Assembly (NCBI GenBank): GCA_051294375.1
Contig: CM119267.1
Span: 18,330,992-18,394,991 of the forward strand
DNA from: Paraspadella gotoi
Taxonomy: Eukaryota; Animalia; Chaetognatha
DNA length: 64,000 bases
Direction of reading: 5' to 3'
Shown in pieces: positions 1 through 64,000 of the stretch. The position numbers and the translations under genes are program-made. The notes beneath the pieces are model-generated. The model searched no databases and was not told the origin of the DNA. It was given only the letters and a program-made list of their open reading frames with translations. Every line of letters starts with the position of its first letter. Positions within the stretch are counted from its first letter, which is position 1.

Positions 1-518
1 CATCGAGCTGGGACGCCGAGTCTTCGAAGCAACGCGGAAAGAGTCAAGTGGATGAAGTACCACCACCACATGCGGGAGACGAACCAGAGAAAGACAGTCC
101 ATTCTGCATGGGACGTGGTACGTATCAAAGATAGTTAATGGGAACAAATAATTAACACGTTTTAAATTACGAGAGAATTCTCAATTCTCTCACCTGTGTT
201 AGTTGCGTCCTTGACGGGTCCTACAATCCGCCAATCTCCCCGTGCCGGTTCGAAAAGCAGTTCGGTCTCATCGTTAAACATTTTATAGGCGGTCGGTGAG
301 AGGCGAAGTACTCGATAACAAACGTAGCCGATGCTGCCAACGGCGCAGACGAGGTTCCAGAAAGATTCGAGGCTGGAGAGGTCCGCGTGGTGCTGCCATT
401 GGGACCGGGGGCTGTGATGGGCGGTAACACAATCAGCGGTTTTTGGATTCGAAGGAGTCTCTGGATTCATCTTTTTGGCGGTTCTTTTCCGCAAAACATT
501 TGATCGTTTGTCTTCCAT
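1..518 (-). CDS. HHAT: Hedgehog acyltransferase (MBOAT), 5' part; continues off the left edge
   Basis: Exon 518-194, GT-AG intron 193-104, exon 103-1. The join gives GPVKDATNTEWTVFLWFVSRMWWWYFIH, which resembles the HHAT KKDATDFEWSFW motif after an N-terminal TM helix. Confidence 0.75.
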
Positions 519-897
519 AATACTTTTTTTATAATAAGTTTTTGTTCATAGGGAATTTTTTTAAAGGATTTGTATATTTTTTGTTTGAACTCGCTGTCTC
601 GCAATTTATTTAAATTATCCTTATTTTTTTGGTTTTCAAATAATTTTCATTAATTTAGTATCGTTTTTATTTTTTTAAACCTGTCTCAACAAAAAATCGA
701 GAAAAACAGTTCTACGGAGAATAAATTAACCCCGAAAACGTCATCAATAACAAAACAAGAATAAAACAGCAAACTAATATAGTCAATGGGAAACGTAAGC
801 TTACGTTGTCAGAAAAAAAAGAATCATGATCACCGCTGAAAAAAACAATTATGAGAAAATCACTCTTTTTCCTCTCGCCCACTAGTCCGTACGAATC

Positions 898-2719
898 TTA
901 GCGTCTATCCCTTGAACGGAAATTCCTTTCGCTCTCCCCGCGATAATAATCCCTCTCGCGGTACTCCTCCCTGAGGCGGGCGTCGTCCTTGGCCTCCTCT
1001 CTATACTCGCGCCTTTCCTCGCCCCCTTCACGCCGTCCCGGCGCCCCGGCGTAGCAATCTCTTTCGCCGCTCCGCGACTTCTCCCGCCTCCTGCGCTTGC
1101 GCTCGGCCTCCGCAGGCGAGCGGCTCTTGGCCTTGCCGTATGATCTCGCCTCGATACCTCCGAGGGTGTCCTGAAGAGAAGAGAGGAGAATCTTGCAGCG
1201 GTGATCGTCGTGGACGCGCGATTGCTTGATAAGCGAGATGGCAGTGACGAGGGTCTCGATGGCGGCGCCGTAGTCGCCCTGGGAAGCGTCCTGAACGGCG
1301 CGGGAGATGGCGTTCGAGGAAATTTGCTTGTTGCGCCGAAGGTGCTCCTCTTTCTCGACCTCAGAGATTGCGTCGGCGGCGAGAGCGGCGGCGGAGACGT
1401 GGGCCGAAGAGACTGGAGCCGGGGAAGGAAAGAGCGCGGGGCGATGATGGGGGAAGGCAGAAGGTGGAAAACCGCCGGGCGGGACTGACAGAAACGCGGG
1501 ATTTATGTGGGGCGCGGGTGCGCCTGGAGGGACGATTAGAGGCGGCAGAGGTGGAAGCGGCGGACGAACGTTCGGCGGAACGAAATGATTGGGCGGCAAA
1601 GGCGGCGCGCAGGGGTAAGGCGGGAAAGTGGCGGAACCTGGAGGAACTTGAGCGGGCGGTCCGGGCCTGATCGGCGGACCAAAAAAGGAGCGCGGCGGAG
1701 GACCCGAACGGTACGGCTGAGACGTAGGGGGGCGAAAGCCGACTGGGAGAGGAAAGTTCAGCCCAGCCACAGGTCGCGGACGACACTGGGGTAACGGGTG
1801 CTGAATCAATTGAGACGGTGCCGGCATGGCGGGCTGGGGAGCAACTTCCGATCGGAGGGAGGGCGGCGATAAAGCAACCTGAATCGGGGGAAGACCTTCG
1901 GCCTCTTCTCGCCTCCACTGCTGCTGCTGCGGTTGAGAAGGCGGCACATCTGGACGACTCGGAGCCGCCGCCTCGAACTCTCTCAGGGCGGTTTTAGTGC
2001 AGGCAGTGACGACGGGAAAATGGTCGTGTAGGCGCGACTTGGGCAATTCCGTCAAAACTTTTTGGGCGCTTTCTTCTGAGGCCAGCGTCACCATGGCAAA
2101 ACTAGGCGATAGAGAATATGGGTCTTCTATTCAGTATCGTTCATCGAAAACATTTAGTTATTGGACAAACTATCTTTCTCTTCAAATTAACTAACAAATT
2201 TTATCAGTGATTCAGGATGACGAAAAATAGCTGATAAAATTTAAAGTTTTACCAAACATAAAACGCTTCAGTTTATCTTACGTAGTATATTATATTAGTT
2301 ACATTTAAGATTGAATAAAGAAACAACGGCACCGAAATATCCTCGTCCTTATAAATTACGAACCCTTTCGACTGGCCGTTGACCCGATTCTCGTAAAACT
2401 TAATCTCGACCAAATCGTCGACTCCCGCACGAGAGAGCGCCTCCGTCAAATCTTGATCCGAGGTCCACCAAGTCAGATTACCCACGTAAAGAGAGAAGCG
2501 ACGGGTTGGGTTGATGAAATTAAAAGCACGCTGAAGGCTCGAAGGAGCCGCGGCGGCCTCATGGGGCACGGCCGCGGTTACATCCTGTTTCTTCGAGGAC
2601 GACGAGATAGGAACGTCCCCGTAGAGGACGTCCACGTCGTCGAGTTCGGTCGATAAGCGATCTGGTTTGGTGTCCCGGACGAGGGTGACACAATCGGCGT
2701 AAATATCGACGTCAGACAT
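898..2719 (-). CDS. CPSF6: Cleavage factor Im large subunit (CPSF6/7)
   Basis: MSDVDIYAD start. RRM LYVGNLTWWTSD...ENRVNGQSKG|FA (intron 2363-2102). Pro-rich region, ISSNAISRAV...AIETLVTAISLIKQS domain, RS/RD/RE tail. Confidence 0.95.
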
Positions 2720-3056
2720 CTTGGATTGGGTACGGGCGAGTCTCAATTAACTCTTCTAGCTAATTAAACAATTTAACTAATCTGTACTCAATGTACATTT
2801 CGGTTTCCATGGAGGGGAGTAAAACAACAGGTCAATGTGAGGAGTAAAAAGTGATTTTATTTCGGTAAAAGAACGTGGGTAAGTACAAAATAATAATTGG
2901 TTCATTTCGATTCGAACAATTTTGGCACGATGAAATAAAAACGAAAATAAGAACTAATCCGACTATTAAGGCACGCGAGGTAATTAAAATATTTCCCCAA
3001 TCACCAGACAATTCAAAATTCTCTCTCAAATTATCACATTTTTTATTTAAAAAAAA

Positions 3057-6000
3057 TCATTTGACGTCGAACCTCCGAAGCTGATGCTCTCCCTCGACCA
3101 GAAATAGCTTGAAAGCTTTGTCAAGAAGAAAAACGCCGAGACTTCGACGGCGTTTCGGTTCCCAGTTGGCGACGTATCCGTAGGCCTTGCCACGAACTTT
3201 GTTCGAAAGATTATCTAATCCCAAGGCTTCGATCATAAGCGCCTCCCGCGTGAAAGCTTCAGCAGGAATGCAACTCTGGAAAACGAAAAATAGTGGGGAT
3301 ATAAATAAGGAAAATTGAGACTGACTCACTGACTGACTGACGACCGTAAATTTCGCGTCGTTTATTTTTTTTTTTACCTGAAAACAGTGATGACTGACAA
3401 CCCCGTGCCCCGATTCCCAAACGTCTCGAATCTGATTAATTTTTTCGCTCGGCTTCTTTTTATTCTCTTCGTTCATGGTTGACCTTTTGTCGTTAATTGC
3501 GTCGTAAAAATGGGAGAAAGGCCTCAATCCGGTCCCTTTGCCGACGTAGAAAACAGCGGCGACAAAAGTTCTTAACAAAAACCAAAAAAAATAGTTTTCT
3601 ATCACAAAAATCACGAACGGCCCCCGAGTCGTTCACTATTCAACTCACCGAAAAGCGACCAACTTTTTATCCTCGGAGGAAGAGGCTCGGATCCTGGCCG
3701 GAAGGTTCCGGGTGACGCGGGGATCGAGGAGGAGGTAGTTAAAGCATGCCTTACACTTAGACGCCGACACAGAGTAGACGGTGTCAGCGTCGCTCGTCGA
3801 AAAATCCTCTACCATCAAGTCGAAGTCGCTCTCAGTGGTAGAAAATGGAAAGACTCCCTAAAATAGAATTACCATTAGAAAGTATAATAATCATTTGAGT
3901 CACGAGTGATGATCGCTCGATACCTGCAGGGCTTGCGCCAATTCATACGGATACACGGGTTTTCTGGCACCGGCATCTGCCATTGGTTCCTTTCGCAACC
4001 GCGTCAACTTGCGCAGAAAGACGCTCCTGGTGAAGTCGGAAATCGGTGGCACGGCCTTTTCACCGGCCTCGAGCAGTAAACGACGAATCTCGTTGTCGTC
4101 AAGGCGAGTCAAGGATTCAGAAATGTTCAAGTTTTCTTCGCCCTTGTCGTCAGCAGGCTCCGACTTTCGCCACCGACGCCGCTGGCGACAAGTTCGCCAA
4201 TCGAAGTTGAGAGAGATAACGCTCTCGGTGTCGCCGGCTTCAGAAGATTCCAGTGAGACAAGACTCACTTCCGGTGTGGGGATAAAAGGAGGAGCCTGAC
4301 AAAAGCACGGGATTAACAACTAACGACAAAAATACAGAAACCCGATTTAACTAACCGGAGGACAGGACTCGCAACACTCGGCGCATTCCGCGCTATAAAC
4401 ACGCTCGATGAGTTGGACGTTTTCCTTTTCGTCCGAATACACGTATCTAACAGTTATTATAGATTAAGATTTAGCAAAATAAGAAAAATCCTGGATTTAA
4501 TCTTAGGTAAACTACAATCAATGGAATTATGGATATACTCACTCTTGCACAGTCTTTTCGCAATTGATGCAAGTCGCGTAGGAAGAGGCCCTGGACGCCG
4601 ACGACGCGTCTAAAGGCGTGACACTGATGAAAGTGTCATCGAGGTCGCAACCTGGGTCGACGTGAACGCCGTCGGCGAAAGACTTAGACGGAAGAAAAGG
4701 CGGTTGAACAGACGCGATTGTCTGGGAAACTTTGAAGGACTCGAGAAATTTATCCATGATAACACCGGCCGGTTTGACTTTCGATCGACCGGAAGAGGGA
4801 AGGGCGTTCCCCTGCGATGGATCAGATCGTCGACACACGCTCGTTTCGTCTCGAGCCGTGACAATCGTCAAGGAATTTTCCAGTAGAGTAGGGCGTTCCA
4901 TGTCCATTATACCTGAATAAATCCCCAATCTTTGGCTAATAAAAAAAAACCCCAAAAGCTCCAAAGTGATCTTACCAGTTGATTCAAGCCATGATGCTGC
5001 CACGGGGTCCTTTGCTCCGCAACGAATTACTTCTGGATTATTTTCGTCGGAATTTCGTCGCCCGTCGTCCTCTTGCCTCATTTTCTTTCGCGCAGAGTCA
5101 ACAGGGTTATCGTAATCATCGTCGAAACCGGCGAGACGTTTCTTAGATCCTTTGAAACCGGTGGAGGGCTGCGGAGATGCAGGAGCTACGGAAACTGGTT
5201 GCTTACCCTGAGGAAATCGAAGGAAAGCAGATTAAGAAAAAGGTAAGAGTTTGAACGCGCATGAAATTGAAGTAGCGAGAGAGAAAGATAATAAGATTCC
5301 GAAAATCGTGAGAGAGATAAAGAGCGCACTACCTCCAACAGTTTCGAAGTACCCATATTTCTCGTTAACGGCGAAATCGAGCGCTTCGCCTTGGCCAATT
5401 CTTTCGTCTCCTTCATAAGCAGGGTAGTCTGATCCGCACAATCCTCGAGTTGTTTTTCCAGCTCCTCGAACTCGATCATCGATTCCGTCCTGACCGTCTC
5501 GTCGTCCTTTTCGTCCACAGTCTCGGTGACGTTTGTCGAAGACGGAGAGTCTTTAACCACCATGTCTTGTTCCTTTTCGGGAGTCGGTCCCAATACGACG
5601 ATGCAAGGAGGAGAGACGGTGACTTTTTTGAGCGTAGAGATCCCCATGCGAACGCTTTTTTTAGCGATTCCCGAAGAAACGGTGGGCTCTTCTCGTTCCT
5701 TCGACATTGAACCCGTCCCCGAAGATTCTGCTGCAACAGCACTGAACGTCTTTGTCGAGTTCGCTTCAGGAACGCCTCCGCGATTCTCCTCTCCCGCCTT
5801 CCGACTAGAAGTCTCCTCTTTGTCGACCGTCGATCTTCGAGAAACGAAGGTCCTCTCGTCGTCGCTGTCGGAGAGATCCTTGAAGGGAGAAACGCTTCTT
5901 ATGTAATCTCGCCAGGAAACCCAACTAGGATCTTTCCGGAGGCGTATTCGCGGGTCGTAGCCCTCCCTCATGATGCCGCACTTCATTGGATCCCAATCGA

Positions 6001-6910
6001 GAGAATCCAAGCTGTCGTTTAGCGTCGCGGCAGCGGACTGGTTGGTCGGCGTGGAAGGGGGATCAACGATCGGGGCATCAAAGTCATTTTCTCGACCAAT
6101 AACTTTCGCGCAAGGTTTCGGTAAGGCCCCCAGGTTTTCCTTCGCTTCATTAGAAGTGTCGGTCTCGCCGTCGGCCTCGACATTGCGTTTTTTCCTGGCG
6201 TCTAAAAATTCTTTCACCTCGTGTTTTTGAGATTGGTACTTCGACAAGGCACTTTGACTGAGAAGAAAAAAGAGTTATAATATAAGGTATAGGTAATCGT
6301 TAATTTAAAAAATATAGTAATACCGAACGGACATATAAATTTGCACCGACTTACAACCAACTTACATACCTTTCGTCGAGCAAAACGTTGCTGGAATTAT
6401 TGCTTCTCGATTTGAGTAGCCTCTTGATCGCTGCCTCTAACAGTTTTAGAACGCACGGATCCCTCGTCGTCTCTCTTGCCATGTCTAGAGGCGTTTTTCC
6501 ATCAGCGTCCGGGATAGCAGCATCGCCGCCATTCTCCAGCAGCAAATTAACCGCCTCACGACGTCCCCAAAGAGCGGCAATGTGAAGGGGCGTGAGACCT
6601 TCAGAAGATCTAACGTTAGGGTTGCCTGTGAGAAGAGGAAAGGTTAAAAGGAAAAAAAAAAAAAAAAAAAAAAAACTTGTTCCGTTCCATCCGTACCTCC
6701 GTACTTCAGAAGCGTTTCCAAGCAAACGTACGAGGCGGCATTGTCAAGACCGGCGGCGATGTGCATAGCGGAGACGTCGTTTTCCCGGACGCGCACATTG
6801 GGATCGGCTCCTTCCTCGAGCAGTTTCACTAGCCGAGTCGCGTCCGGAGTGTCGCCGCCCTCCAGCAAAAGCTCAACCACTTGCGTCGATTTGGCGAGGG
6901 CGAGCGACAT
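3057..6910 (-). CDS. ANKLE1: Ankyrin repeat, LEM and GIY-YIG endonuclease (LEM-3)
   Basis: Ankyrin repeats (TPLHIAALWG), LEM domain (LDDNEIRRLL...PISDFTRSVFLRKL), GIY-YIG domain (FNYLLLDPR, FYVGKG, EAFTREALMIEALG). Multi-exon. Confidence 0.93.
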
Positions 6911-7102
6911 TATGATTATCCTTTTCTATATTAATTCTGATTTTTGAAGTGTAGTAATGAAACTTTTAAATAACGGGTACCAATAATTTGCGATTACATA
7001 ACGAAAGAATAAATTAAAATACAGGCAATACGATAAAAAAAATGTTAATTTCAAATAGCTGATTGACGTGAGATCTCATTGTCCTATATGCAACCAAGCT
7101 CA

Positions 7103-8777
7103 CTACGAATCAGAGACCGGGTATTTGGGCAGCTCCGCTTTATCCCTGGAGGCGTCGCCACCAATTCCGTTTTCAACATCCTTTCCGCCACATCCGGCTT
7201 CTTCCAATCTGATGATCCGCCTTCGCTTGACGAAATGTTCGACCCTGTCCTCGAGACTCTCGCAAAGCGGGCGCTCAAACAAGGGTTTGTGCTTTCGCGA
7301 CTTGCTGCCGCTGACGAGGGCGCGGTGGGGTCGAGAAACGGCGTCCAAGCGAGAGGACATCGATCCCTCCTCATTTCCCGAGCGCTCCTCGACGGCCGCT
7401 TTCGCTTTGAAGGCCGCCAGCTCCAAGGCCTGAACGCACAGCGCTGACTTGACGGAGAGTTCGACGGAAAGTTTCTGGTAGTGAAGAACGAGGTCAACGA
7501 GTGCCTCAGCGTCGGCGACCCACTCGGCTACGGCGGGAAACTCGCAAGAGTACAGATTAAGCGGAAAGTCCGCAGCCATGTTATACTGCGGCTTACGAGG
7601 GTGATTCGCCACGTCGAGCAGCTTGGAAATCGCCACGGGAGGCTCCAGTCGTTCGCCGACGAGAAACAAGAGGGCGACGATACATCGAATCTGATGCCAG
7701 AGAAAACCAGAACCCGTGACGCATAACTGGCAAAGCTGGAAAAACGTTTAAAGTTGAGATATAAAATTAACTCGATAATAAAAGCTCATCCAATCTTTAC
7801 CTCCATTCCACTCTGCTGCAGCAACCGGGACTTAAAATGAAACGTCGACTCGAGAGTCGATACGTCAACAGAGTCGATTCTACGGACAAAGGTTGTGATG
7901 CCGTTGCCCACATCCATTTTGCAAACGTTGCGAAAATCGTGTTCACCAACAAGGAGCTTACCGGCTTCGGCCATCAAGTCAAGATTGAGATTTCCTAAGA
8001 CAGATAGAGAAAATTATGCAAGAGGTTTTTCTCATTTAGCATTGCTAACATTTTTTTTAAAATGCTGTCGCTCAGGTCAAACGCCGTCGTCGTACCTTTA
8101 GGGAAAAAGTAGGTGTAAACTCTTTTGTTGCAGTCGAACCTGGCGCTGAAGTCTGGCTCGACCGGCGTCCACCCCAGGACTCGAATGTCTCGCGGAAGAA
8201 CTTTGTTTAGGATGTGGGCGTAACGAATCTCTTCTTTCGGCATGTCCGTAGCTCCGGAGCTGGCGGCGCCGTTAGACCGCGCGGACGTTGGAATCAATCC
8301 CACTCCAGCGTCGAGATTCGATCTCAAGTCGATAGAGACGACCTGACCCAGGGCGCTAACTCCTTTGTCCGTGCGTCCGCATCGGTGATAGTTTGAAGTC
8401 TCTCGCGACTCAATGAGGCGGGTTCGTTCGAGGGCCTCGAAGAGGGCCGACTCGACCGTATTGGTCGTATTGTCCTGGACCACGTAGCCCTGCCAGTCCC
8501 AGCCGAAGTAGGCGACGTGGAGGGCTACGTGTCGCTTGTTGTATCGGGAAAAGTCGAACGGTTTCCTTTTTTGAGAAGACGATGTCGACGATGCGCCTTC
8601 CGAATTACCATCGGGTCGAGAGTCCCCGCCTTCGGCGCGATTCCGCTTCGCCAAAATATTTTTGAGATTAAGGTTGGCCGCTTCGAGTTTTCGAATTTTT
8701 TCGACCAGTTCGTCTTTGGAAAGTTGATTAAGGTCGACGTCTGGGAGAGACTTGACCCGTGACACAGGATGCGTCAT
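7103..8777 (-). CDS. PUS3: tRNA pseudouridine 38/39 synthase (TruA family)
   Basis: RHVALHVAYFGWDWQG, RCGRTDKGVSA, FSARF, GEHDFRNVCKMD, FLWHQIRC, KPQYNMA. Three exons. The ATG directly follows a T-run and CAG. Confidence 0.95.
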
Positions 8778-8946
8778 CTGAAAAAAAAAAATTGTCAAAA
8801 TTCAGTAAAAAAAGGAATTGATACTCTTTTTTACTACGATGTATGGTTATAATAACAAAATATAATAACAAAATAAGCGAACCACGGCCGGAAACAAAAT
8901 CTTATATTATCTCATGTATCCCCCCTAGCCCATAAAATTCCCTCGA

Positions 8947-10065
8947 TCATGTGTCGCACGTTTCGGCTTCGGCCAGCAGCTTCAACCAATAATCGAATTG
9001 CCTATTCTGCCAAGTCCTCCAAAAACGGGAGAGGGCGGCGAAGTCGAGAGTATGAAGAGTCGCCGGCGAGCCGTCCTCGTAGCAGACGACGATCAAAGCC
9101 CGCTGAATAGAGCGAAGGCGTTCGTCGAGCCCGAGGGTCTGCGCGATCGCGGGAATCGAATCGAAACTAAGATCGTGATTGAGGGCGCCAACGTAAGCAG
9201 CCGCTTGAACCGGAGCATCGTACAATGAGGACAACGTGAGTTTCGGTTTGGCCGACGTCTTCCACTCGACCAGAGTCAACGCTCCTAATTTGCGAGCATT
9301 GGAGGGAAAGACTGATTATTCGACTGGTTCCGTAAAAAAAAAACCCGAAACTGAATGACGCACCATCCATCACCAAAAGGGAGTCGATCCTTCCCGAGTA
9401 ACGAAGCACCGGGTGAGAAATGGGGCTCTCGCCGAGAATTAATTCGTCCACGCGATCCAGAACCGGACGAGCGCTACGGAAAAAGGCCGACTGGATCAGC
9501 GACGCCGCCGACTCTTCCATCGGTACTCGCGTCTTCAGAAAATCGTGGATATTTTTATGGAAAGAACTGCCGCGCGAGAGAGTGTCTCGCTGAAGAACGG
9601 CGAACCCGTCTTCACCCAATTCCTTTATTTTCTTCTTCTTCCAGGCGAGCAACCTGAGGATAAGGATAAGGAAAGCGCGGGATATTAGGAAAAGGCTAAA
9701 TCCCTCCAAAAGCTAAAAATCCAAGCAAATTTTAAGCGGATTTATAATCTCAACTGATTGGCATTTAAAGACATTAACCTGAAAAAAGCTTGTTCATCCA
9801 TCGTTTTACTCATAACGGTAGTGACGGAAGGGAATTTTTTCGTTGCAGATATAATATCTGGTATTTTAGTTCGAAAATCGGATTCGCTAGGCAAAAGTCC
9901 GATGTCAAAAATGGTTTTCAGAGTTTTTTCCAGGGACGGAACCTCCGACGTGGAAGTGGAGAACGATTTTCGGTGGACGAGTTTGAATTTAAAACGAGGG
10001 ACGGGAAATCGATTCATCAAGATCAACAGTGTTTTCGTGCAAGGAGTCAATTCGGAGCAAATCAT
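8947..10065 (-). CDS. MGME1: Mitochondrial genome maintenance exonuclease 1
   Basis: PSVTTVM, RGSSFH, YSGRID, LVEWKTSAKPK and YDAPVQAAAYVGALN PD-(D/E)xK motifs across three exons. The start could instead be 10017. Confidence 0.9.
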
Positions 10066-10463
10066 TGCAAAAAATTATACTAGTAGTAATCGAAGAAACA
10101 TAAATAAAATTTAAAACTTGAAAAATTAGTGTACTGTGGAAATCGATATGTTGGACATAAACAATATAATTCCTTTGGCGAAAGGAAAATGCGTCTAAAA
10201 CCCGACAACTTAATCAGCCTAAAAATAGTTTTTTTAAAAAATATATTAGGCCACAACTGGTGGTGGTCCGAGTCAGAGAAAAGTCAAAAACTTTGAATCA
10301 TTTATCTTCCTGTTTTTTCTTGAATGTCTTGAGCCCTTTTTTTCGGGCACGCTTTCCGCTTACCACCTTACCTGCTAGAGGAACACGATATGCATTTATT
10401 CCCAGAAAATCTTGAGGTTGGAACGAGACATACCTTTGAGACCAATGAGACTCGACTGCAACG

Positions 10464-11380
10464 TCAACGCTCCCTGCAACAAAACAATAATTGAGGGCAA
10501 AAAGCGATCAATTGTGGAAAGGAGATCGACGCCGATGGATACCTGACCGCTCGAATCCTGTTCCGCTGAAATATAACGTCTTCTTTTGTAAAGGCTGATT
10601 TTAAAAATGTGAACGGGAATGATAACGAAATTAGGATCACTGTATTGACACGGGCACGAGGACACACCCGGATGAGGACGATGAGTCCCTTTCACGAAAA
10701 TGTCCGGGGCGAGCGTCCGTACGATTTCCGAACCCCATCCCTGCCATTGTCGGCGGTTGAGGCACAGCTTTGCGGTTCACGCCTTCCCAACCGCGATGCA
10801 AATTACAAAATAATTTAGTCCCAATTGCTTAAAAACCAATCACTACCTTCCGTGTCACTTGTCTCAAAAACGTTAACGTTTCGCGTCGCTTGAACCTCCT
10901 GGCGCCATTGCGTCTTTAGGAACAATTAAAAACTCGACGATTTTTTTTTTTTTGGCTCATTGTTGAAGAATTTCATCACCTCCTTTTCTTTCTCTTTAAG
11001 CGTTTTGTATGGAAGAAAGTCTTCGTGCTCGCAGTGTGGGCCCGTAATACGCTGACGCACCTGGGGCCTCTCCGCGTATAAGTACAGGTAAACGGACAAC
11101 ATCATGCAGCCCATTAAAACGGTCGTCAGGCAAATAACCTAGCCCCCCAAAAAAAAAATTTTTTAAGTAAAAAAGTGTAATTAGTTTTAAATGGAAAAGA
11201 AAAGTATTACCAATTTATTCATTGGGTACATGACTGCGTTCACGTCCACGAGGCCTTTCAATAACGGTGCAAAAATAAAGAAAAACATTCATTTAGGTAA
11301 TTACAAACTAAATTGCGTAAAGTTGTAACGATTTCTATAAATAATAAGTATGGCCACGTGGGCTTACCCCAGTGGGTCAT
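10464..11380 (-). CDS. Small multi-exon single-pass membrane protein, family unknown
   Basis: Hand-spliced MTHWG|LVDVNAVMYPMNKL|VICLTTVLMGCMMLSVYLYLYAERPQ followed by short basic exons. The 3' exon structure is ambiguous. Confidence 0.5.
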
Positions 11381-11554
11381 TTAGTAGCATGGTCGCGAGG
11401 GAAGCCGGCGACTGACTGACTCTCTCTTTTCCTCTCTCTCTTTCCTGCGCATTCTCTCTTCAGTCTCTCACGATCACTATTTGACATGATTTGACATGAA
11501 AATTTGCAAATTACTTGTTTCACTATTTTCTATTTTTATATTTTATGAAGTATT

Positions 11555-40434: not shown

Positions 40435-40474
<40 letters not shown>

Positions 40475-43403: not shown

Positions 43404-43432
43404 ATAAATATTTTACAAATTTGTGCAAAAGA

Positions 43433-43483
<51 letters not shown>

Positions 43484-44582: not shown

Positions 44583-44625
44583 ATGCTGATGAAGACTCTC
44601 AACCACAGAGTCGAAACCTGTCCCT
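44583..44625 (+). ncRNA. Minimal hammerhead motif
   Basis: CTGATGA-A-GACTCT/AGAGTC-GAAA-CCTG-TC. Confidence 0.7.
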
Positions 44626-45727: not shown

Positions 45728-45822
45728 TAAAAAGATTTAAGTAAAAGTGACTTATATTTTTTTCATTTAAACTCACCCACACACAAAAATTCATTCCAAT
45801 CCAACCATCCAATCACGAGTAA

Positions 45823-51900: not shown

Positions 51901-54900
51901 CCCCGAGATCGTGAGACGAGAGTGAGGACGATCCTTGACTCGGGGATGAAGAGGAAGGAACAACGAAGGGAAGAGAAGGAGTAGAGGTTGAGAAGGGGGA
52001 GAGAAAACCCATCTTTCAATAAGCTTTATTTTATGTTTCTATGTCTTCGTAAAATTCAGGCATCTAATATGTTTTTTCGATGTGAAAAGTGGCTCCTTTT
52101 TTCGCCGTAGTGTGCAAGATAATGACAGAGCAGTTCCTTCAAACATAGTGAAAGGACCTTCGTTTTGTTTTAAATTGAGAGAGAAAACAAAGTTTGTTTT
52201 TGTTTACAAACAACAAATTTTATTTTTTAAACAAACATGTTTCAACTCTTTTTAAAGTCTTCATCAGCGCAATGTGAATTTAAATTTTGCCAAACATCAT
52301 GATGAAGGGAGATAAATGATACTGTTGGTAATGTTCCTTTAAGACATTTGAACTTTTTTATCTCAAACCCGACAAGACACTATGAAAAGTTACGTGAACG
52401 GCCAGAAAACGTAAAATGTAAAAAAACCAGAACAAAACAAAAAGTAATATGTAGAATGAGACATTAATGATTCCAATCAGGTAACAGGAGAGAAAGAGAG
52501 GGAGTGAAGATAAAATCGCCTTCTGACCTTTTTTGGTCATATTTTTCTCTCTCGGTCCCATTGCAACGCCGGTCATTTCGTACGTTTACTTTTAGAAATT
52601 TGGTGACCAAATTTTATTCGTTTTTGAACCATTTATTGAATCAACGTCGCGCGTCCGAAAACCGTTTTTTACGGGTTTTCGCGACCAGATATTGTCACGA
52701 TTTTCTTTTTTTGCTACAATTTTGTAATGACCAAGAATAGACGTTTGGACCGTTTGGGAACTCGCGTTGTACTTTTACTAGAGATATAGTCAGTGAAACT
52801 TTTGTCAAAACCTCTTTTTGGACGGGCGACCAACGAACGCCAAGGACCGCAAAGCATGGAGACTCGGAACGTCTCTACAGAGAGTGAGAGAGAGAGAAAG
52901 AGAGAGAGTAAGCGTCCAACAAAGATTTGAGTAAAGAAAAGTGTTAAGGGTAAGAACAGCTGAAGGTAAGGACAGGAGAGACAGAGAGAGAGTGAATAGA
53001 AATAAAGTCAGGTCATTTGAGAGTAAGTAGGAAACAATGTTTGGAGAAAAGAATAAGACTCGAAACATATCCGTTTATAAAAATAAAATTTGTTGTTTGT
53101 AAACAAAAACAAACTATAATTCAAGTTAACAGTACCAAAATGGTTGTGAGCAAAACAAAAAACTGATTGAACTGTATCTCTCTCTGTCTTAATAAACTTT
53201 TTATCATTTCTTTACTGTTTCACTATCTTTCAAGATTAAGTTACAAGAAACCTTTAGTTTAATAGTGTTTTCATGTGATTTTTATTGGTTAATATTATTT
53301 TTTTTATCCTGTCAGCTAATCAAACGATACATATTAGCTTTTTAATTTGATTTTATATTATTTATTTAAATTTTTAATTAAGATTAATAAGTTTTTATTA
53401 AATTAAAATATTACTGTGAAACGTTAATTCTCATTTGGAGCATATTTGGCATTTTATTTAATATTTGCTGAAAAATGTTCTACAATTTGGTACCAAGGTA
53501 ATATTCCCAAGGTTTGGTAAAGATATTCCAACCCATCCTATAGGAAGCTTGCCAGGCTACTATAATTCAGGCATTTTATGATATATTTCCTTTTTTTTAA
53601 ATCTTAGTAAATAACTGAGTATCTAGCAGGGATTGAATTAATTTTTTTTAAAAATGTTTTACTGTATCTGAGTTTTCAAAAATTATAACGCACTTGATAT
53701 ATTAGGGAGATCTGTAGTCGGGAAAACTTCCGCTTCATAAGTAAAAGCCAAAATGATATTTGAAATAATTTTTTTTACACCAATTTGATAAACGCTTTTA
53801 TGAAATAAATTTCGTTTTTAAGAGCACTTTTCAACTGATTGGCAGAGCTAAATTCTTTACCTTAACAACGACATAAAGTAAGAGTCAATTTAAAAATAAA
53901 AAATAAGTACAATACAAAGGCCACGATTCATTTAGGAACGGGCAAAGAATTAGGCAAACCATTTGGCCGTTTATCCAAGGATCGAGTGGAATATTAGGTG
54001 TTGGAAATAGCGATTGGATGGAATTCGGCGGCGGCGCAGATCTTAAACCGTGATCGAGCACCGCCCCCGCAAAACGTCGGAAAAAGTGAACGTAAGGCCA
54101 TTACGTTTCTGAAGCGCAATCGAGCTATCATGGTTCACCCCGCAGATAAAGGCAGAGATGCGGCAGTCATAAACGCTCATGACTATAAATCGAAAGTTAA
54201 CGCAATGTTATCGGACGGCAAAGTCTATACGCCTCTCTCAAAGGCTCCCACCCTCGCTTACAGGGTGAGAATCCAGACGGTTACGAAACGCATTCGTGAA
54301 TACTGTCCCCCGTCAGTATTTCACAGAGTCAACCTTGACTCTACGCACTGCGTAATAATGAATAACAATAAATAAACAGATAATAGCTTAAAATAAACGC
54401 TATCAAAAAATATAAGAAACCCAAATATAAACCATATGTTGAAATAGAACACAAATTAGAGAATTATAATTTAATACAAATGAAAAGGAAACTGACAAAA
54501 TCGATTTAATTTGACATTGAACCATGAAATAAGGAATTAAATTGAAAATAGCGGGGTAATTAAAATGAGAGCGTGGAAAATTTGGTTACCTGGAGTTGAA
54601 TTCGTTAACCAGTTGATCGGTAGTTCCTTTGAAATTTGCAATCTCCATTTGTTTTATGCCAACCAATTTGCTGAGCTCTTCTTTTTGTTGCAACGCGTCT
54701 TTGTTGCGTTGGTACAGCTGACTACGCTCCAAATTAATTTTCTTCAAAAACAACGAAAGTTTATAACACATTTTTGGAAACGGTTGAGGTTCATAGTCCC
54801 TTATAAAGACATGCCTGAAGATCCTCCGGCCGAAGATCCTGAGCATCGTAGATGACCTGAAGTCGCTTCTTATCGTCCGCCAAAACCATGGTTTGTTTTT

Positions 54901-57900
54901 CGAGTGCCTCGTTGTCTTTTTTCAAGGTTCCCACCTTAAAAAAAAAAATTATATTGAATTACGGATTACATAAGAATATAGTGAATTCCCTACCATTTGC
55001 TGGAGCTTCTCGAAGTAGTTTTTTTTTTCATCCACGTGCTTGTAAAGCTTTGCTCTGTCCTCTTCGTGGACGCCGAGGCTACGCTGCGCTTCGGCAAACG
55101 CATCCGGTTCTGATTCGATCCTCTGCTTCTTCTGCGTCAACTTTTCCAACTCCGCGGCGAGAGTGTGGGCGTCGCCTTAAAGAAAATAAAAATCGATTAA
55201 AGCGATTTAGTACGAATTTAGAAATAATTTTTTTAGATATTACCTCCTAGACCGTGGACAAGTTTTTTAATGTCATCTTCGTGCTGCTTGATGCAACCCT
55301 CATATTCGTCCTCTCCATCCATGAACGCTTCGTATGTGTCGCTAACAAATCCCCATTGAAGTCTTTTAATATGTGCTTCCTGATAGAACAAGTTTGAGCA
55401 AACAATGCCGGATCTGCCAACGATCATTAACGGTAAGCAGCTGATCATACCTACAGACGGACGGACGGACCAACAGACGGATGGACCTACAGACATCATT
55501 TTTTCCCATAATTTATCATTAAAGGTTTTTATTTTTAATTCGAAAACGAATGTAATTAGCAGTTAGCCTTCATCAGCTCAAAATTTGTTTTTAAAATTCT
55601 CAAAGATTTTTCCCTAAAAGTAATGGAGAGAGAGAGAGAGAGAAAGTTTTCCAACACAGAATTTAGAAAAGGACAGTGAGAGATTGAGGACAGTTTAAGG
55701 ACAGTATAGACTGGAAGAAAGTGAGGGAAAGAGAAATGAAATTTAAGCCAACTACAGTGAATTACATTTGATTAATGAATAAGACAATAACAATGTTAAA
55801 TTGGTATAAACTGTGACATTAACAATTAACTGAGATAAATTAAATTCTACATAATGAAATAAAAGTAAATAAAAAGTGAAAAATTAAATAGAGTAAAAGG
55901 GTAAGAAAAGTTAAACAAAGTGCATAAAGAGCTCAAAATAGAGCTTCCCCCGCTCTCTCTCCTTTTCCCTCCGTTACTTTTTTGACAAAATATGTGAGAA
56001 TTTTAAAAACAAATTTCGCGCTGATGAAGGCTAACAAAATAGCCGAAACATGTTCGTTTTTTCATGTTAATTACATTCGTTGTTGAAATAAAAATAAAAA
56101 ACTTTTCCTTTAATGCTACCTACGCAACGAAACGAAAGAAATAAAACCATGCACATTGCACAATTTATCATAATTTGATGTTCTGACATAATCTCAGTGA
56201 ATGACCGACAAGATTGGGGGGGGCGGACCGACGGACCGACAAAGTGAATCATATTAAAAATAAGACGAGTTTTTCTTCGAGGAGAAAAATTAAGAGAAGA
56301 ATGTACGAAAGGGAAAATAAGTCTTTTCAAGACGACCAACCTCTTCTGAAGCGTCAATCTGCAGTCCACCCCCGGGAAGCAAAACTTGTTCACCGTCCAA
56401 GGCGAGGGTGGTCTGAATTGGGCCGATCATCCAGTGCAGGACTCCCAATAGATAGTGCCATGAGTGAGGGGAACCGATGGTTTTAAGGTGAGAGTTCGAT
56501 ATGTTAAAAGGATAACCAATATTCTGCAAAGGAGCGATTGGGAGACAATGAAGCAGACTTTTCTCAATTGCCTATCTTTACGCGAGCTATAAAGGAACCT
56601 TAATCTTATCCAAGAAAACTTGGGCTTTGTCGTGCGATGGCAGAAAAGTAAAAGCTTCATCCACGAACCCGTGGAGAAATTCGAAAATCCTCCAAAAGTC
56701 GGTGGAGCTGGGACCTTGGACGAGATCGCGCATTTGTATAGGATGTCCGTACCCGTGTTCCAACAGAAATTTGTGGACGTCGCGAGCGCAGTGTTGCCGG
56801 GCTCCTTTGTCCGAAAGATTTCGAACGTCAGTCAAAGGTTTGTTCGTGCCCAAACCTAAATTTTAGTGAAAATAAAATAATAAAATAAACGTAGTTTAGA
56901 GAACAAATCATAAAAGCACAGCAAGCTCACGTTTACCTCCAGAAGATCTTCTGAAACCTTGGCCTAGGGCCTGATTCGACAAACTACTCTGTCTGTTGCG
57001 CATAGGACCTAGGAATGTGGAAAAAACAAGTTTGAGCAAACAATGTCGGATCTGCCCACATTAATTAGCGGTAATTAACTAATTTAAATAATTAATACAA
57101 CTATATAAACTAAAATAATAATTCAATTAATGAATTAATTAATATGATCCGAAAAGTTTGTTTTGAGGTCTTTTTGTCACTATGACAAAAGCAACGACGA
57201 CGATGATGGCGACGACGATAATAATGCCGATAACGATTGACTTGATTGATTTATTAAATAAGATTAATTACTACATCTTGCATTTACATTTAATATAAAA
57301 AGAAAAAGAAGCATAATCAAATAGTGAAACAAGTTTTTTGTTTTTTCCATTTAAACTCATTTCCACTCGCCCGATTCCATCATATCCAGCTCAATCACAC
57401 ACTTACCTACCCACACACAAAATTTTTTTCCAATCCATCCATCCAATCACGAGCAATTGGAGTTTTTTGCTAAGGTGGGACGGACGGACGGAGGGACATC
57501 GTTTTTTTTTAACATAATTTATCATAATTCGATGTTCTGACATGATATAAGTGAATGCCCGATAATATTGAGGGGGCGGACCGACGGACCAACAGTGAAT
57601 TATAGAGTCGGGATCTGCTGATAAGCAGATCTGACTAAAAATAGTGAAGAGAAACAAAGGATCTTCGAGTCCAATTAAGAATCGAAATGCTGTTGTTACC
57701 TGGCGCAACGGAGGATCTGCCGACAGACGCAGACCTCTTTTGTGGAAGATTGTCGGGACGAATTCTTGCATTCCCTAAATAACGAGTCAGACGCTAACAG
57801 TAATAAAACCCCACACATACGCTTTTATTTTACTATTATTTACCTGCCACACCGGAAATACGCGGAGTCGGCCGGGGTATACTGCTTCTTTCGGTTGATC

Positions 57901-58137
57901 TACATAAAATTGCCAAAGGATTTAGTTAACTAACACTATATTCTATAATGCCATCCCACGCCAAAAGCGGCTTTTATTATCGCGAGAATAATGGCTAATT
58001 CCAGAAATGACTGGGTGTATATTGGAGTAATGTTAAGAGATTGAGAAGTGCCCTCACCTCGATCGAGCTTTGCTGGATGATAATCGATCCCCTGGTGCCT
58101 GATTCTCGTCGCAGATTCCGCGCCAGTTACGCTTCAT
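48938..58137 (-). CDS. NDC80: Kinetochore protein NDC80/HEC1
   Basis: Basic tail exons, CH domain (DVRNLSDK, PSSTDFWRIFEFL, IGYPFNIS, GSPHSWHYLLGVLHWM, YEAFMDG), then long coiled-coil exons down to 48938. Confidence 0.9.
52231..52270 (-). ncRNA. Degenerate minimal hammerhead motif
   Basis: CTGATGA-A-GACTT/GAGTT-GAAA-CATG-TT. Confidence 0.6.
53998..54345 (+). mobile_element. Penelope-like retroelement ORF fragment in an NDC80 intron
   Basis: PPPQNVGKSERKAITFLK..AIMVHPADKGRDAAVINAHDYKSKVNAMLSD..Y matches the (P)ADKG region upstream of the RT core in Penelope-like elements. The ORF is truncated. Confidence 0.82.
56017..56058 (+). ncRNA. Minimal hammerhead motif with covaried stem II
   Basis: CTGATGA-A-GGCTA/TAGCC-GAAA-CATG-TT. 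Confidence 0.75.
57024..57641 (+). mobile_element. HINE/DINE-1-like non-autonomous Helentron element
   Basis: Starts aacaagtttgagcaaacaatgtcggatctgc (also at 41621 and 55387). Has a (GACG)n microsatellite and a 3' hairpin agtcgggatctgct-gata-agcagatctgact reusing the 5' subterminal motif, then an A-run. Confidence 0.72.
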
Positions 58138-59188: not shown

Positions 59189-62100
59189 TCACGGTACGGT
59201 GATCCAACCCGAAGTGGCCAAAAACTCAATGATCTTCTTTCTGTGGCTCTTTTCCACTCCGTGATACTTGTTCTTGACGGTGACCCCGTTCTGCCTGGAG
59301 CAATGATCCTTGAGGATGGCGGCTTTTATGAGTATGTAGTTGGAGGGCGTCATGGAGATGGAGCGACACAATTGGCGCTCCTTGTGAGAAAGGAGATCGT
59401 AGCCGGGGAATTTGGAATAATCAGTGTTCCTGCCGTTGGTCGATGAGGAGGATGCGGAGACCGGGGTAGCGTGCTTCCCAGAGGCGGATCTAGAGCTACC
59501 TCCGCCGCCGGCGGTTTTTCCGGAACCTAGTAAAGGAGGCGGCTGCGGCGGTGCGGAATGGGGCGGTGCGGAAGTGTCCATGTCGCCCGCGTCACCCTCG
59601 TCCGTCTGCTCGCCGTCGGAAGTATCGCAGGTTGACGAAGTTTCGGCGCTGGCGGTCGCACGAGTGTTTTTGCTCGTCGAGCGAGACCCTGTTGACCTAT
59701 AATAAATTCAGGCGAAGGAAATGAGTCAAGCAAGCAAGCCGATTAAGGCAAGACAGTGGTCATTGACTGGTCAACATACCGACTGGAGTTTGATTTCTTC
59801 TTGGATTGTACTGAGCCGTTGGAAGCCACCTCCTTCCCTCCTGTTTCTTTTCCTTTGGACTTCTCCCGCTTTCCTTTAGAGGATTCGGCATCGGATATTT
59901 CATTGGTTTTCGTCGTAGCAAGTTTTCTGTCAAGTGGGTGAAGTGCAAAGGAAATGTGACAGGATTGAAAACATCGTACGTACGTACAGTTTTAATTTTA
60001 AAAGCATTCTCAAGACTTGCAATACTTTATTCGTTGTCTTATTTGCTCTCAAGACTTACCGCAAATTCGCGAGTTCTTTCAAACGATTCTTGAGTTTTTT
60101 TTCCTTTTGGAGATTTTCGTAAAGCTTCTCTTGCTCGTGGAGGGAATGAATTTGAGCGAAGATCCTCATACGGTCGAACCTAAGAAGTCGTCACGAAAAG
60201 AGGAGCGTTTGATGTTGATACTACTTTGTAGGTAATTCGGGGGGAAACTCAACCACGAACCACTCTTTCTCTTCTTTGGACGATCTTCTCTTGGAAATAT
60301 CCGCGGCTTTTTTTTGATCCTTCCTTTGAATTGTGCCGACGGCGTTTTCGATCAAACGAAAATCTCGCGCCACGTTTTTGCGACGAATTCGTTCCTGAAA
60401 GAAAGGTAAATCAAAATTACGTACATCTGAGGTTTTTCGACCAACCATAGTCTTAGTTTTTGCATTGATCATTTCCTCTCTTCCAAATGTAAGAGATAGA
60501 TTCTTAGAATAATACTAAATGAGATTGAGATTTCATCAATCTCATTTGCATATAGTATTAAATCATTTTAAGTGCAATTGATTTTTGTACTGTAATATTA
60601 TTAGGCATATTTTTTGATTTTACATTACTTTTCTATATCGTTTAGAAGTTTTGTAGAGATATGTCCCCCTTTTCCCCCCCCATTTATTTGTTTGCCTTTT
60701 GTTATTACCATTTCTGCCGATAGATGCCTCTTTTCTTTTCTTTAGGAGATTACACTCCTCTTTTCTTTTCTTACCAGATATTCTAGGCCATGTAGATACC
60801 TAGGACTTTTCCGCCCGTCACCAAACTGCCTTTTACGAGGTCCTAGGACGCACTTCATGTCACTATGCGTCACCTTTGATACCGTTTACAGACAGTGATG
60901 TCATGGCCATAGAGCCCACGACGAGACCACACTTCGATAGACTTGTGGATGCGGTTGTGGTCAGACTATAGCTTCCGTCACCGACTTGTGGACGAACTTG
61001 TGGTCTACGTCATCAGACCACACTCGAGTGACGATATCCTCGCCGACCACGGGTCCACGGCGCCAGTCCACGGCGTTCTCGGACTCGCTCTCCCGTCACC
61101 ACGGCGTTCTGACGACATCGGCGCTCACGCTTCGGCGACGGACGCGGCCACGTCAATTTCCGGAGACGCTTATGAGGGACGTGGAGGACGACTCTCCTCC
61201 ATAGCGGCGCGACGGCGGCGAAGCAGTTTAATTGATTCATAGATAATTTGGTGATAATTTGATAGTATAATTATGTCATTAATGATTGAGTGTATCTCTA
61301 TTCTGGCTGACCTTTTCATAACTCATAAATACTTTATTATTAAAAGGTGAAATCAATGGTCAGCTTGGATCAAGGGAAGTCCTATCATGTTAGAGTCCCA
61401 TATCTCTGAAGTCCTTGTTCAATGTATTAAGTGTTGAATAGTTTTACTCAATAAACATTAATTATAATAATAAAGATAAATTATATTTCTATTTGTATTT
61501 AGTTATTTAGCTATTGTAGTAAATCTCAGGTAAACTAGAAAGGCAGCGCAAGCTCTATCACGGAAGATGCAAGTAACAAATAATATATAATTCATAACCC
61601 GAGTCCCACTCCTACACAAACTCACCCTTAATCTCATTCTGTACATGTCGACGTAAGCGGCCTTGAGAGCGGAATCGACGTCATCGTCATCTTCGTCGTC
61701 GCAAGATATTTCTAGCCCAGCGAGAAGATGCTCGGCGTCGTTGTCATACTCCCTCTCAAAGTCATCCCTAAATTTAAATAGAAACATGGGAGATGACCCC
61801 AAATAAACATGGTCAAAGTTTTACTTCCCCTCCCGTTTCAAATCGCTATCGGACTATAGAAGCGTTATCTCTAAACGTCATAATACCTCAAAGGCATGAA
61901 TCCCAGGAGTTGTTGCTCTTCCTGCGGGATGGCGATGGGGGGGAACTGGACGGTCAGTGACGGAGAAAGGGGACCGCCTGCGTAAATTAAAAATCCTCAA
62001 TCCTCATGAACATTGAACAATGTCAATTTTTTCCTAAGAAAGTCTTTTGTCTCTCACCTTCGGGACATGAATGGTCTTTGGTCTGAAACTGAGGATTGGG

Positions 62101-62568
62101 TTCCCGCGGGAGAGTGGCGCTTCCCAAGCTTCCGTCGATGTAATAAGCGCGGTAATGGTCGGCCACGTTGGAGGCCGAAGCGTTGATTTTTTTCGCCACG
62201 TCTTCCCAATTGCCGAAACTGATAAGAGACGAGAGGCACAGTTTAAGGCTGAAATTCAACAAGACCCGCCATACTAAATATCATGTTCAAAATAAACCAA
62301 CGGACCCGAAATGCTCGACAGTTTCAACGAGATCACACTCGTTGGTGGCCTGCCATTGGTTGGCCCCTTCGAAGATCGGAAAGGATCCGCGGTCGGCCAG
62401 ACTATAGGCGTGCCCGCGCTTGTGGGAGCCCATCTCTGCTCCACACGCCAAGCACTTGAGGCAGAGAGGCAGATCTTCGCAAACAGCGCAGACGGCGCCG
62501 ATGCCCAGAATCTCATCCTGGCAATAGGTGCAGAATACGCGCGGAGTCGATTCTGAAGGCGCCGCCAT
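59189..62568 (-). CDS. TADA2B: Transcriptional adapter 2-beta (SAGA)
   Basis: ZZ finger (FCTYC...CAVC..LCLKCLACGAEMGSHKRGHAY), SANT (FGNWEDVA), GFMPLRDDFEREYDNDAE, C-terminal SWIRM (LLSHKERQLC...IIEFLATSGWI). Confidence 0.92.
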
Positions 62569-63032
62569 GGCGAATTGACAGTTTTGAAGATTAGACGAGA
62601 AGTTAGCTACTTTTTTTCGTGGCACAAGGTTTTCGGTTAATGATTAATCGGGGTGAAGATCGCGCGGCTCCTTGGTCTCCCCGGACGCGACCTTCCTTTC
62701 TATTATTAAAAAAAAAAACGAGGCATAGAAAAAAAATAGAATAAAGGTGTTATATATCAAATGAGCTACGGTCGACACAATCTCGCGCCGATCGTAATTG
62801 AAAAAAAGCACATCTTTTAAATATCAATCTGAAGCTGAGCTAAGAATAACGAATCAAAAGAACAGAACATAGTAATGAAGTCATTGGAGATCGCTGTTAA
62901 TGAATCTTGATTGTAACGAGAAAAACAAGTCAGTCAATCATTTTCGGTTACGTATCACAGGAATTCGCAAGATTAGGTTAATTTTTTTTCGTAAGGCCAT
63001 GAAGATTTTCCATGAGTTCGAATGTTTTCGCC

Positions 63033-63697
63033 TTAAATTCCACGATCAAAAATCTTCGGGGATCGATCGACTAGTTGAGTCTTTGTTGGAACTTATGAAG
63101 TCTTTGAGCGCAAATTCGTCACGACCTTCTCGTCTCATCGACAAATAGACCTAAAAAAATACTCGGTCCAGTTGGTATTGTTATTTTTAATATTGCAGCG
63201 TCTTTCAGCATTGAACCGCAAAGGTCGACAACAAACTCCTAATTCGTTCGAACAAATGCTTACTTGGGGTTCACCAGTTGGTGCCTTTTCGATCTTCTTC
63301 AAGACTCCGTGCAAACGACCACCCGTGAGAATTTTCGAGATGATTTCCAGATTAGGGTGATCCATTAACTTACTCATGTCCGCCAATTCCGCGGCCATCC
63401 CTTTAGTAGATCTCCTCCGGGGAATAAGCCCCTCTACGGGGAGGTGTCGAAGGTTGATCACTTTCACCTCATCCGAGTTTCCCCAGTCCACGAAAGCAAC
63501 CTGACGGAAAAAATAAACTGAAAATAGGCTTTTAAATAGGAAACAATAAAAAACTTACGATAGCCGAATCTTGATGCCCTGTCTGCGGAGGTTCGATGAT
63601 TTGACCGCGGTACCATAGACCATCTTGCTCCCAAAAAGCGGCGCAAACCATATTTCTGACGGGATTCTTCATGAACGGCCACGTATGGGCGTTAGTC
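63033..63697 (-). CDS. Extended Tudor-domain protein, last three exons
   Basis: MVCAAFWEQDGLWYRGQI...|VAFVDWGNSDEV...LRHLP aromatic-cage Tudor motif. The 5' part lies outside the window. Confidence 0.85.
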
Positions 63698-64000
63698 TGC
63701 GAAAAAAAATTGTGCAATGTGCATGTTATAATTTATGCACGTTTATATCTTAATTATTTTTATTATTTTATTACTATTTTCTAACAATAATTTTAATGAA
63801 AAATAAATATATATTATATAAATATAATATATGTAAATAATATATAAAAATAAATGTATAAATAAATAAATATTTTTAATTAAATATGTTTAGGAATATG
63901 TCAATATCAATAAAACAAAAATAAATATTATTAATCTTAATTTATCAAATATATCACATATTTAATAAAAATAAGTTTTTAGACGTTTTCATAACATTTA

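Follow-up and report, generated by a model that had tools for sequence, protein, structure and literature searches.

A 64-kb window of the chaetognath Paraspadella gotoi carries 22 co-oriented genes that may form several consecutive spliced-leader operons

The window analysed here is a 64,000-nt stretch of the Paraspadella gotoi genome (assembly GCA_051294375.1, contig CM119267.1, positions 18,330,992 to 18,394,991) in which every modelled gene lies on the minus strand, and it raises the question of whether such a run is transcribed as one unit, as several, or gene by gene. Chaetognath operons are already known (PMC2481426, PMC12460157), and it is the length of the one-strand run that is unreported in the literature searched. 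The explanation that we favour, with moderate confidence, is that the window contains several consecutive co-oriented spliced-leader (SL) operons, namely, a few polycistronic units whose mRNAs are cut apart by polyadenylation and SL trans-splicing. The locus is a real feature, with a known mechanism and an unusual scale.

The window was read at its full length, and gene models were built for it, with 66 introns modelled. All 22 genes modelled are encoded by the minus strand, as the initial annotation had stated for the recognisable genes; the outermost two are truncated at the window edges, and the run is open on both sides. From right to left, the first block comprises the Tudor, TADA2B, NDC80, MED27 and phytochelatin-synthase-like genes and is followed by a spacer of 5.7 kb. 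To the left of the spacer lie the PHD, globin-like, DnaJ, SmD1, MRPL35-like, UBE2D and CNBP genes and a small nucleolar RNA (snoRNA) host, and beyond the host the hnRNP, CHEK2, TMEM87, CATSPERB, MGME1-like, PUS3, ANKLE1, CPSF6 and HHAT-like genes. Five genes are thus located right of the spacer, and a packed chain of 17 genes extends over 40 kb to the left edge. The same-strand chain of the initial annotation holds, but its counts, about 24 genes with about 19 from 40 kb leftwards, are lowered to 22 and 17, or to 23 and 18 if the small transmembrane (TM) exons at 11254-10298 form a separate gene. At least 22 genes follow one another without a strand switch, as in kinetoplastid clusters of tens of genes, and adjacent genes share a strand, as in SL operons, for all 22 of 22 genes.

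The plus strand was searched for genes in two ways. A Pfam scan of stop-to-stop open reading frames (ORFs) of at least 50 aa covered 245 ORFs on the plus strand and 287 on the minus strand. The minus-strand matches support 17 genes, the Tudor match being sub-cut-off, and no host gene was found among the 245 plus-strand ORFs, a search that a gene consisting solely of short exons (under 50 codons) within the spacer or a large intron could escape. The sole plus-strand ORF above the curated cut-off, at 43320-43556, matches DUF3915 on an AG microsatellite and was dismissed as low-complexity noise. A codon-model scan outside the modelled exons gave just two kinds of plus-strand signal, GC-rich patches that are not genic and the remains of a retroelement (54010-54351), in agreement with the earlier claim that this relic, at 53998-54372, is the only plus-strand coding trace.

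The genes are separated by short intervals. The stop-to-ATG gaps, which include the untranslated regions (UTRs), have a median of 337 bp, with 16 of the 21 gaps not exceeding 500 bp and seven not exceeding 250 bp. At 18 junctions the gap is between 103 and 705 bp, and the remaining three gaps are of 1051, 1363 and 5742 bp; the 1363-bp gap, from CNBP to a 125-codon ORF (ORF125), contains the snoRNA-host exons. The tightest gaps measure 103, 125, 127, 169, 176 and 192 bp, so that the six sizes reported initially were each right to one base, our counting convention giving values one lower. Once the host exons are counted, no gap in the 40-kb chain is wider than 705 bp, which bears out the earlier limit of about 0.7 kb. 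Measured from stop to ATG, 7/21 gaps fall within the operon distance rule of 250 bp, applied to P. gotoi, and 16/21 within that of 500 bp, applied to Oikopleura; the true distances from the poly(A) site to the acceptor would be shorter. Two intervals differ from the rest:

40095-45822, no strand: gene-free spacer of 5.7 kb with transposon remnants (long inverted arms and hammerhead-bearing repeats)
33632-34127, minus strand: GC-rich 496-bp gap before UBE2D, with 47% GC versus 24-39% in other gaps, bridged by contig 11 of run X9

Judged by its content, the spacer is likely to represent a boundary between transcription units, and the GC-rich gap may be an internal promoter or a long 5′ UTR. The short gaps have a T/A skew of +0.15, whereas the spacer has none (0); since the skew varies widely in the large introns, from -0.17 to +0.37, the value in the spacer is no mark of untranscribed DNA.

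Assembled contigs of run X9, presumed to be RNA, were aligned to positions 20001-40000 and 27330-32170. Among the 15 joints listed out of 44, 14 are CT..AC, corresponding to introns of minus-strand genes, one is AA..AA in a repeat, and none is GT..AG; in 27330-32170 all six joints are CT..AC and represent the same introns as six of the 14. Contig 11 (6,344 nt) contains six genes, from PHD to UBE2D, with the introns removed in five of them (the globin-like gene is intronless) and the gaps retained, and it is colinear across the PHD/globin, globin/DnaJ, DnaJ/SmD1, SmD1/MRPL35 and MRPL35/UBE2D junctions. Contig 9 links CHEK2 to TMEM87, and further contigs extend from CNBP to the 3′ region of UBE2D and from the snoRNA host to the 3′ region of CNBP. 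Eight gaps are bridged by spliced contigs, which are all of the gaps where a bridging piece was listed. The lengths of the contig pieces and the bin depths reproduce the gene models to within 1 nt. The bridging spliced contigs fit read-through precursors. In the segment 1000-10900, the X9 word content is 0.79, against 0.66 expected for coding sequences (CDS) only and 0.77 for all non-intron sequence, and this is a lead only.

Acceptor-like sites precede many of the start codons. They were scored in 20 genes, neither the host ORF nor the small TM exon being among them, using an acceptor matrix derived from the 66 modelled introns and a dinucleotide-shuffle null. When 60 nt before the ATG are considered, the top-scoring acceptor averages 4.24 versus 2.62 in shuffled sequences (p=0.0025), and at this width ten of the 20 genes reach the lower quartile of the true acceptors versus 5.1 expected (p=0.017), the figure for the opposite strand being 4/20. 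No donor-like site was found before the best acceptor in 15 of 22 gaps, the small TM exon being counted here as a gene. A U-rich tract followed by AG is most clearly seen before the ATGs of PUS3, MED27, CATSPERB, CHEK2 and NDC80, and the predicted acceptors include those at 48830, 40094, 35989, 31791, 28821, 27224, 20155 and 8777. The contig of the hnRNP gene apparently ends at 28821, where the sequence following its best predicted acceptor begins, and there is no cover from there to 29015; this position follows from the depth of bin 28788-28949, 626.9, which equals 2986.8 x 34/162 (626.86), that is, 34 letters. The stop was not counted as evidence: it was seen in one run and at one of three gene starts in the stretch, and contigs cannot show starts.

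In the proposed mechanism, RNA polymerase II (Pol II) would start close to where each unit begins, such as past the 5.7-kb spacer before the PHD gene and possibly also in the GC-rich gap before UBE2D. It would read through successive genes, each 3′ end being cleaved and polyadenylated, and the capped leader would be joined at an acceptor that has no donor and lies some tens of bases ahead of the next ATG. About two to five units, rather than one, could make up the run, with the 17-gene chain representing one or a few of them, and co-orientation would reach beyond the single operons.

Several points weigh against this scheme. The leader itself was not seen: in the contigs of 27330-32170 no leader sequence was found, the sole loose end being a poly-A repeat with no contigs lying partly on the stretch, and in 20001-40000 none occurred among the 12 loose ends listed, which are repeats, a further 173 lying outside the listing; contigs, however, show presence and not absence. 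The prefix of the published chaetognath leader has no exact match in the window, and its two one-mismatch matches compare with 1.8 expected by chance. The acceptor signal depends on the width examined: of the three tried, 100 nt gave p=0.12 and 150 nt gave p=0.035. U-rich 3′ UTRs score close to acceptors (4.7 vs 5.5). A contig spanning two genes does not equal a single transcript, as DNA or overlapping UTRs could produce the bridges and the RNA status of X9 is guessed. CATSPERB has testis-type expression, and its place in the middle of the chain among housekeeping genes would be easier to explain by a promoter of its own. The number and borders of the units are judged by the appearance of the sequence.

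How far such a run exceeds chance depends on how often neighbouring genes share a strand. For 22 independent strands to be alike, the probability is 2x0.5^22 = 5e-7. Among 21,000 genes, the expected number of runs of at least 22 is 0.005 if the probability of sharing the strand of the neighbour is 0.5, 0.07 at 0.57, 0.9 at 0.65 and 3.5 at 0.70; the figure of 57% was derived in this analysis from the published operon counts of P. gotoi. In a genome rich in operons, a small number of such runs can thus arise. The run requires strong local co-orientation, though not necessarily a single transcript.

The best-surviving rival, which we regard as unlikely, is that at least 17 genes, and possibly all 22 if the spacer is an intercistronic region expanded by transposons, belong to one giant unit read as one Pol II transcript, in a genome composed of long directional clusters with post-transcriptional control as in trypanosomes. 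It draws on the gaps of the chain, which apart from the snoRNA-host exons do not exceed 705 bp from stop to ATG, on the contigs crossing eight of the eight gaps where a bridging piece was listed, and on a bacterial artificial chromosome (BAC) clone of Spadella whose host genes share a strand throughout its 158 kb, gaps of more than 10 kb included. The spacer may moreover be a mere insertion, as long gaps (one in 21) are not rarer than long introns (nine in 66; Fisher p=0.44). However, under the 250-bp rule no operon of more than nine genes is reported in P. gotoi, the GC-rich gap before UBE2D resembles a promoter, and adjacent short operons would give such runs a few times per genome if the same-strand probability is about 0.7. 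The one or two giant SL-resolved units in a CatSper-retaining animal suggested by the initial annotation can be kept in part: geometry, acceptor enrichment, bridging contigs and lineage speak for SL operons, but the spacer breaks the packing and the gap before UBE2D is a possible promoter, both of which weaken the case for giant units.

Compact monocistronic genes provide a further, rather improbable, explanation. Small promoters would overlap the 3′ UTR of the upstream gene, the common orientation would be a tail event or a relic, and trans-splicing would remove private outrons only. The lack of a leader among the listed loose ends and the modest acceptor enrichment are in line with this, overlapping UTRs or DNA can yield bridging contigs, and the window was selected as an extreme out of very many. 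On the other hand, gaps of 103-192 bp would have to accommodate the 3′ UTR and poly(A) site of one gene together with the promoter and 5′ UTR of the next, none of the 21 junctions is divergent or convergent (p ~5e-7 if independent), and operons are documented in chaetognaths. An artefact of assembly or missed plus-strand genes is very improbable: the Pfam scan omitted exons of less than 50 codons in the large introns and spacer and the RNA contigs cover 20-40 kb only, but eight DNA runs, seven of them possible sources of this DNA, contain 96-100% of the words of 1000-10900, contigs of run X8 are colinear over 2.7-kb pieces spanning gene junctions, and the codon scan shows no plus-strand gene.

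The consecutive SL operons proposed here resemble those known in chaetognaths in having head-to-tail housekeeping genes, very short gaps and acceptor-like sites before the start codon, and the named host genes of the Spadella BAC are also on one strand. They differ in that the published maximum is nine genes, whereas the window holds 17 packed and 22 co-oriented genes. According to the portions of PMC12460157 used here, about half of the P. gotoi genes are trans-spliced and 18% belong to operons defined by the 250-bp rule; the longest operon, of nine genes, includes proteasome subunits and is therefore not the present locus. The main text of this paper, to which the check was confined with the spreadsheet supplement outside it, contains no use of the words 'strand', 'orientation' or 'directional'. 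In Spadella cephaloptera, 36-nt leaders and one two-gene operon are described, and PMC2481426 remarks that further genes of the BAC also occur in clusters with a common orientation. Table S5 of that paper has 24 rows over 158 kb, of which 19 are on the plus strand, four, all transposon entries, on the minus strand and one unoriented; every one of the 14 named host genes is on the plus strand, and two of these may be a single gene (PMC2481426). Long one-strand domains may therefore be a general feature of chaetognaths, for which no measurement was found in the literature searched.

Operons of tunicates and nematodes (Ciona, Oikopleura and SL2 operons of C. elegans) share the proposed mechanism, and 16/21 gaps of the window pass the Oikopleura rule, but their units are shorter and the operons of Ciona mostly lack an intercistronic gap. 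In the parts of the sources used, Ciona operons have up to seven genes (PMC7986045) and Oikopleura operons are defined by the 500-bp rule (PMC11067885); the parts used of PMC10282587 and PMC2776167 have nothing on operon length. Kinetoplastid clusters likewise run for tens of unrelated genes without changing strand. Their genes are described as nearly intron-free and all trans-spliced, whereas those of the window are intron-rich (66 introns modelled, 14 confirmed as joints) and host snoRNAs, and no tRNA boundary is present, no tRNA genes having been found in the window. A kinetoplastid-style directional cluster, the other proposal of the initial annotation, fails in the strict sense, as there are at least 66 cis introns across the genes. 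All trypanosome genes are stated to be polycistronic in the portion of PMC7986045 used.

A bolder proposal is that chaetognath chromosomes consist of long directional clusters with tens of intron-rich genes per SL-resolved unit, the window containing an operon of at least 17 genes and 40 kb that fixed-distance rules miss. We hold this to be possible but doubtful; the independent Spadella BAC makes it worth testing. It would mean a trypanosome-like genome architecture in a bilaterian, in which genes with housekeeping, mitotic and sperm-channel roles are transcribed together and regulated at later steps, and it would bear on the link between trans-splicing and loss of gene-body methylation proposed in PMC12460157 (portion used). 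Animal operons are described as having two to nine genes in the literature searched, where no animal with one-strand domains this large is reported. If the 17-gene chain is one unit, its length would be exceptional for an animal operon, roughly double that of the longest found there; the packed chain and the Spadella BAC suggest that gene orientation in Chaetognatha may be coordinated over tens of genes.

The sequence relatives and CpG content were also inspected. The last TMEM87 exon matches four transcript-size records at 85-87%, followed by nemertean, hemichordate and brachiopod proteins at 66-68%. In a quick tree of 43 rows chosen from 120 matches, with no named chaetognath, tunicate or nematode row, the window and the four records form one clade (SH-aLRT 100, stem 0.93) that falls outside the molluscs, the annelids, nemerteans and brachiopods, the arthropods, the deuterostomes and the cnidarians. 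A metagenome scan for transcripts of relatives gave 13 loci with distant relatives or single exons only and none of the 85-87% TMEM87 records. The observed/expected CpG ratio of the CDS (23 kb) is 1.27, so that gene bodies are not CpG-depleted, a trait not unique to Chaetognatha. Such a ratio fits a lack of gene-body methylation, as reported for a chaetognath in PMC12460157. The separate clade, the CpG content and the operon-like packing together probably point to a chaetognath.

The protein-coding genes of the window, from right to left, are as follows:

63046-63696, minus strand: Tudor-domain gene, 3′ part, cut by the edge (Pfam TUDOR E 7e-4, sub-cut-off; model)
59189-62568, minus strand: TADA2B-like gene, 8 exons (Pfam ZZ_ADA2, TADA2A-like, Ada2b_C; model)
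48938-58137, minus strand: NDC80, 14 exons with a repeat-rich intron of 3.8 kb (Pfam Ndc80_HEC; open model)
47194-48812, minus strand: MED27 (Pfam Med27), with a donor-less acceptor-like site at 48830 in the 125-bp gap
45823-47066, minus strand: phytochelatin-synthase-like gene, 5′ exons uncertain (Pfam Phytochelatin, weak, 47 bits)
38805-40080, minus strand: PHD-finger gene heading the packed chain (Pfam PHD, zf-HC5HC2H; exons agree with X9 bin depths)
37193-38506, minus strand: intronless gene for a globin-like protein of 437 aa, a lead (Atlas 0.85-0.86 to globin clusters; within X9 contig 11)
36126-37089, minus strand: DnaJ gene (Pfam DnaJ; model), presumably DNAJC30-like, a name from the initial annotation
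35469-35949, minus strand: SNRPD1, Sm D1-like (Pfam LSM; model)
34128-35206, minus strand: mitochondrial ribosomal protein gene, which we take to be MRPL35-like (model; exon 2 length agrees with X9 contig 11)
32471-33631, minus strand: UBE2D-like ubiquitin-conjugating enzyme (Pfam UQ_con)
31224-31765, minus strand: CNBP-like zinc-knuckle gene (Pfam zf-CCHC; spliced joint)
27532-28743, minus strand: hnRNP-like gene with RRM and Gly-rich part (Pfam RRM_1; best acceptor-like site opens at 28821)
22926-27100, minus strand: CHEK2-like FHA kinase (Pfam FHA, Pkinase; joints)
20414-22561, minus strand: TMEM87 (Pfam GOLD, GOST_TM; 5/5 introns confirmed as joints)
10298-20144, minus strand: CATSPERB-like gene, model incomplete (Pfam CATSPERB_C E 2e-9, profile 32-75 of 258)
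8947-10065, minus strand: PD-(D/E)XK nuclease (PDDEXK_1 E 0.028; model), presumably MGME1-like, likewise named from the initial annotation
7103-8777, minus strand: PUS3-like gene (Pfam PseudoU_synth_1), with poly-T and a CAG acceptor immediately at the ATG
3057-6910, minus strand: ANKLE1 (Pfam Ank, LEM, LEM-3 GIY-YIG)
898-2719, minus strand: CPSF6 (Pfam RSLD_CPSF6, RRM_1)
1-470, minus strand: membrane-protein gene, 5′ part, cut by the edge (reading frames), which we take to be HHAT-like

No Pfam match was found for the globin-like and MRPL35-like proteins and no credible one for the HHAT-like gene. The globin-like protein has an N-terminal Gly and Cys cluster, presumably a possible site of acylation, and two helical regions. 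A GC-AG intron at 54742-54814 (minus strand) is required for an open frame in NDC80. A GC-rich segment in a TADA2B intron (60913-61239) has frames open on both strands and is probably a repeat. The TM exons at 11254-10298 are most likely the end of CATSPERB, given the predicted in-frame join of 11746 to 11254; the alternative of an independent small TM gene, starting from an initiator at 11419, was rejected because the exon joins the CATSPERB frame. These exons have no match in PDB or Pfam, and a CATSPERB exon was blank in the representative-protein search. The last large CATSPERB intron includes a GA-rich stretch (11255-11420, minus strand), containing a strong donor (11367) and two motifs resembling initiators, which could be an internal promoter or an alternative first exon.

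The host transcript and its two snoRNA candidates are located between CNBP and the hnRNP gene:

29016-30800, minus strand: spliced snoRNA-host transcript, 5′ limit approximate (joints 30553/30733, 30247/30506 and 29449/29634)
30623-30685, minus strand: intronic C/D-box snoRNA candidate 1 (C box 30685, D box 30626)
30323-30380, minus strand: intronic C/D-box snoRNA candidate 2 (C and D boxes; sub-threshold Rfam C/D matches)

The two minus-strand snoRNAs of the initial annotation are supported by the C/D boxes and by a 9-nt guide common to both, presumably complementary to a conserved stretch of 18S rRNA, but not by an Rfam match above threshold: over the whole window, Rfam gave no match at the gathering threshold or at E<=1. 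ORF125 (29860-29299, minus strand) keeps its frame across an RNA-confirmed intron and belongs to no known family; no homologue of its first exon and no Pfam match were found. The host also contains a 35-codon ORF upstream of ORF125.

Mobile-element traces and repeats are found in the spacer and in introns:

53998-54372, plus strand: retroelement relic in an NDC80 intron, the only plus-strand coding trace
41214-41245 (plus), 43369-43398 (minus), 44586-44617 (plus), 52239-52267 (minus), 56021-56049 (plus): hammerhead cores (motif, predicted)

The relic, for which no credible Pfam match was found, is presumably a fragment of a Penelope-like reverse transcriptase. The five hammerhead-ribozyme cores with a stem II hairpin are exact matches, versus 0.23 expected by chance, and degenerate copies occur near 16200 and 45450. 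Sense-strand copies are present in the spacer and in the introns of NDC80 and CATSPERB; all are predicted from sequence, and none appears in the Rfam results. The cores resemble the minimal hammerheads reported for Penelope-like elements. The inverted arms of the spacer (42683-43122 and 44796-45243), about 2 kb apart, are likely to belong to a non-autonomous DNA transposon. A repeat with telomere-like hexamers is shared by the CHEK2 and CATSPERB introns (25190-25365 and 16080-16150), and its copy at 25190-25365 has a very high contig depth in runs X8 and X9.

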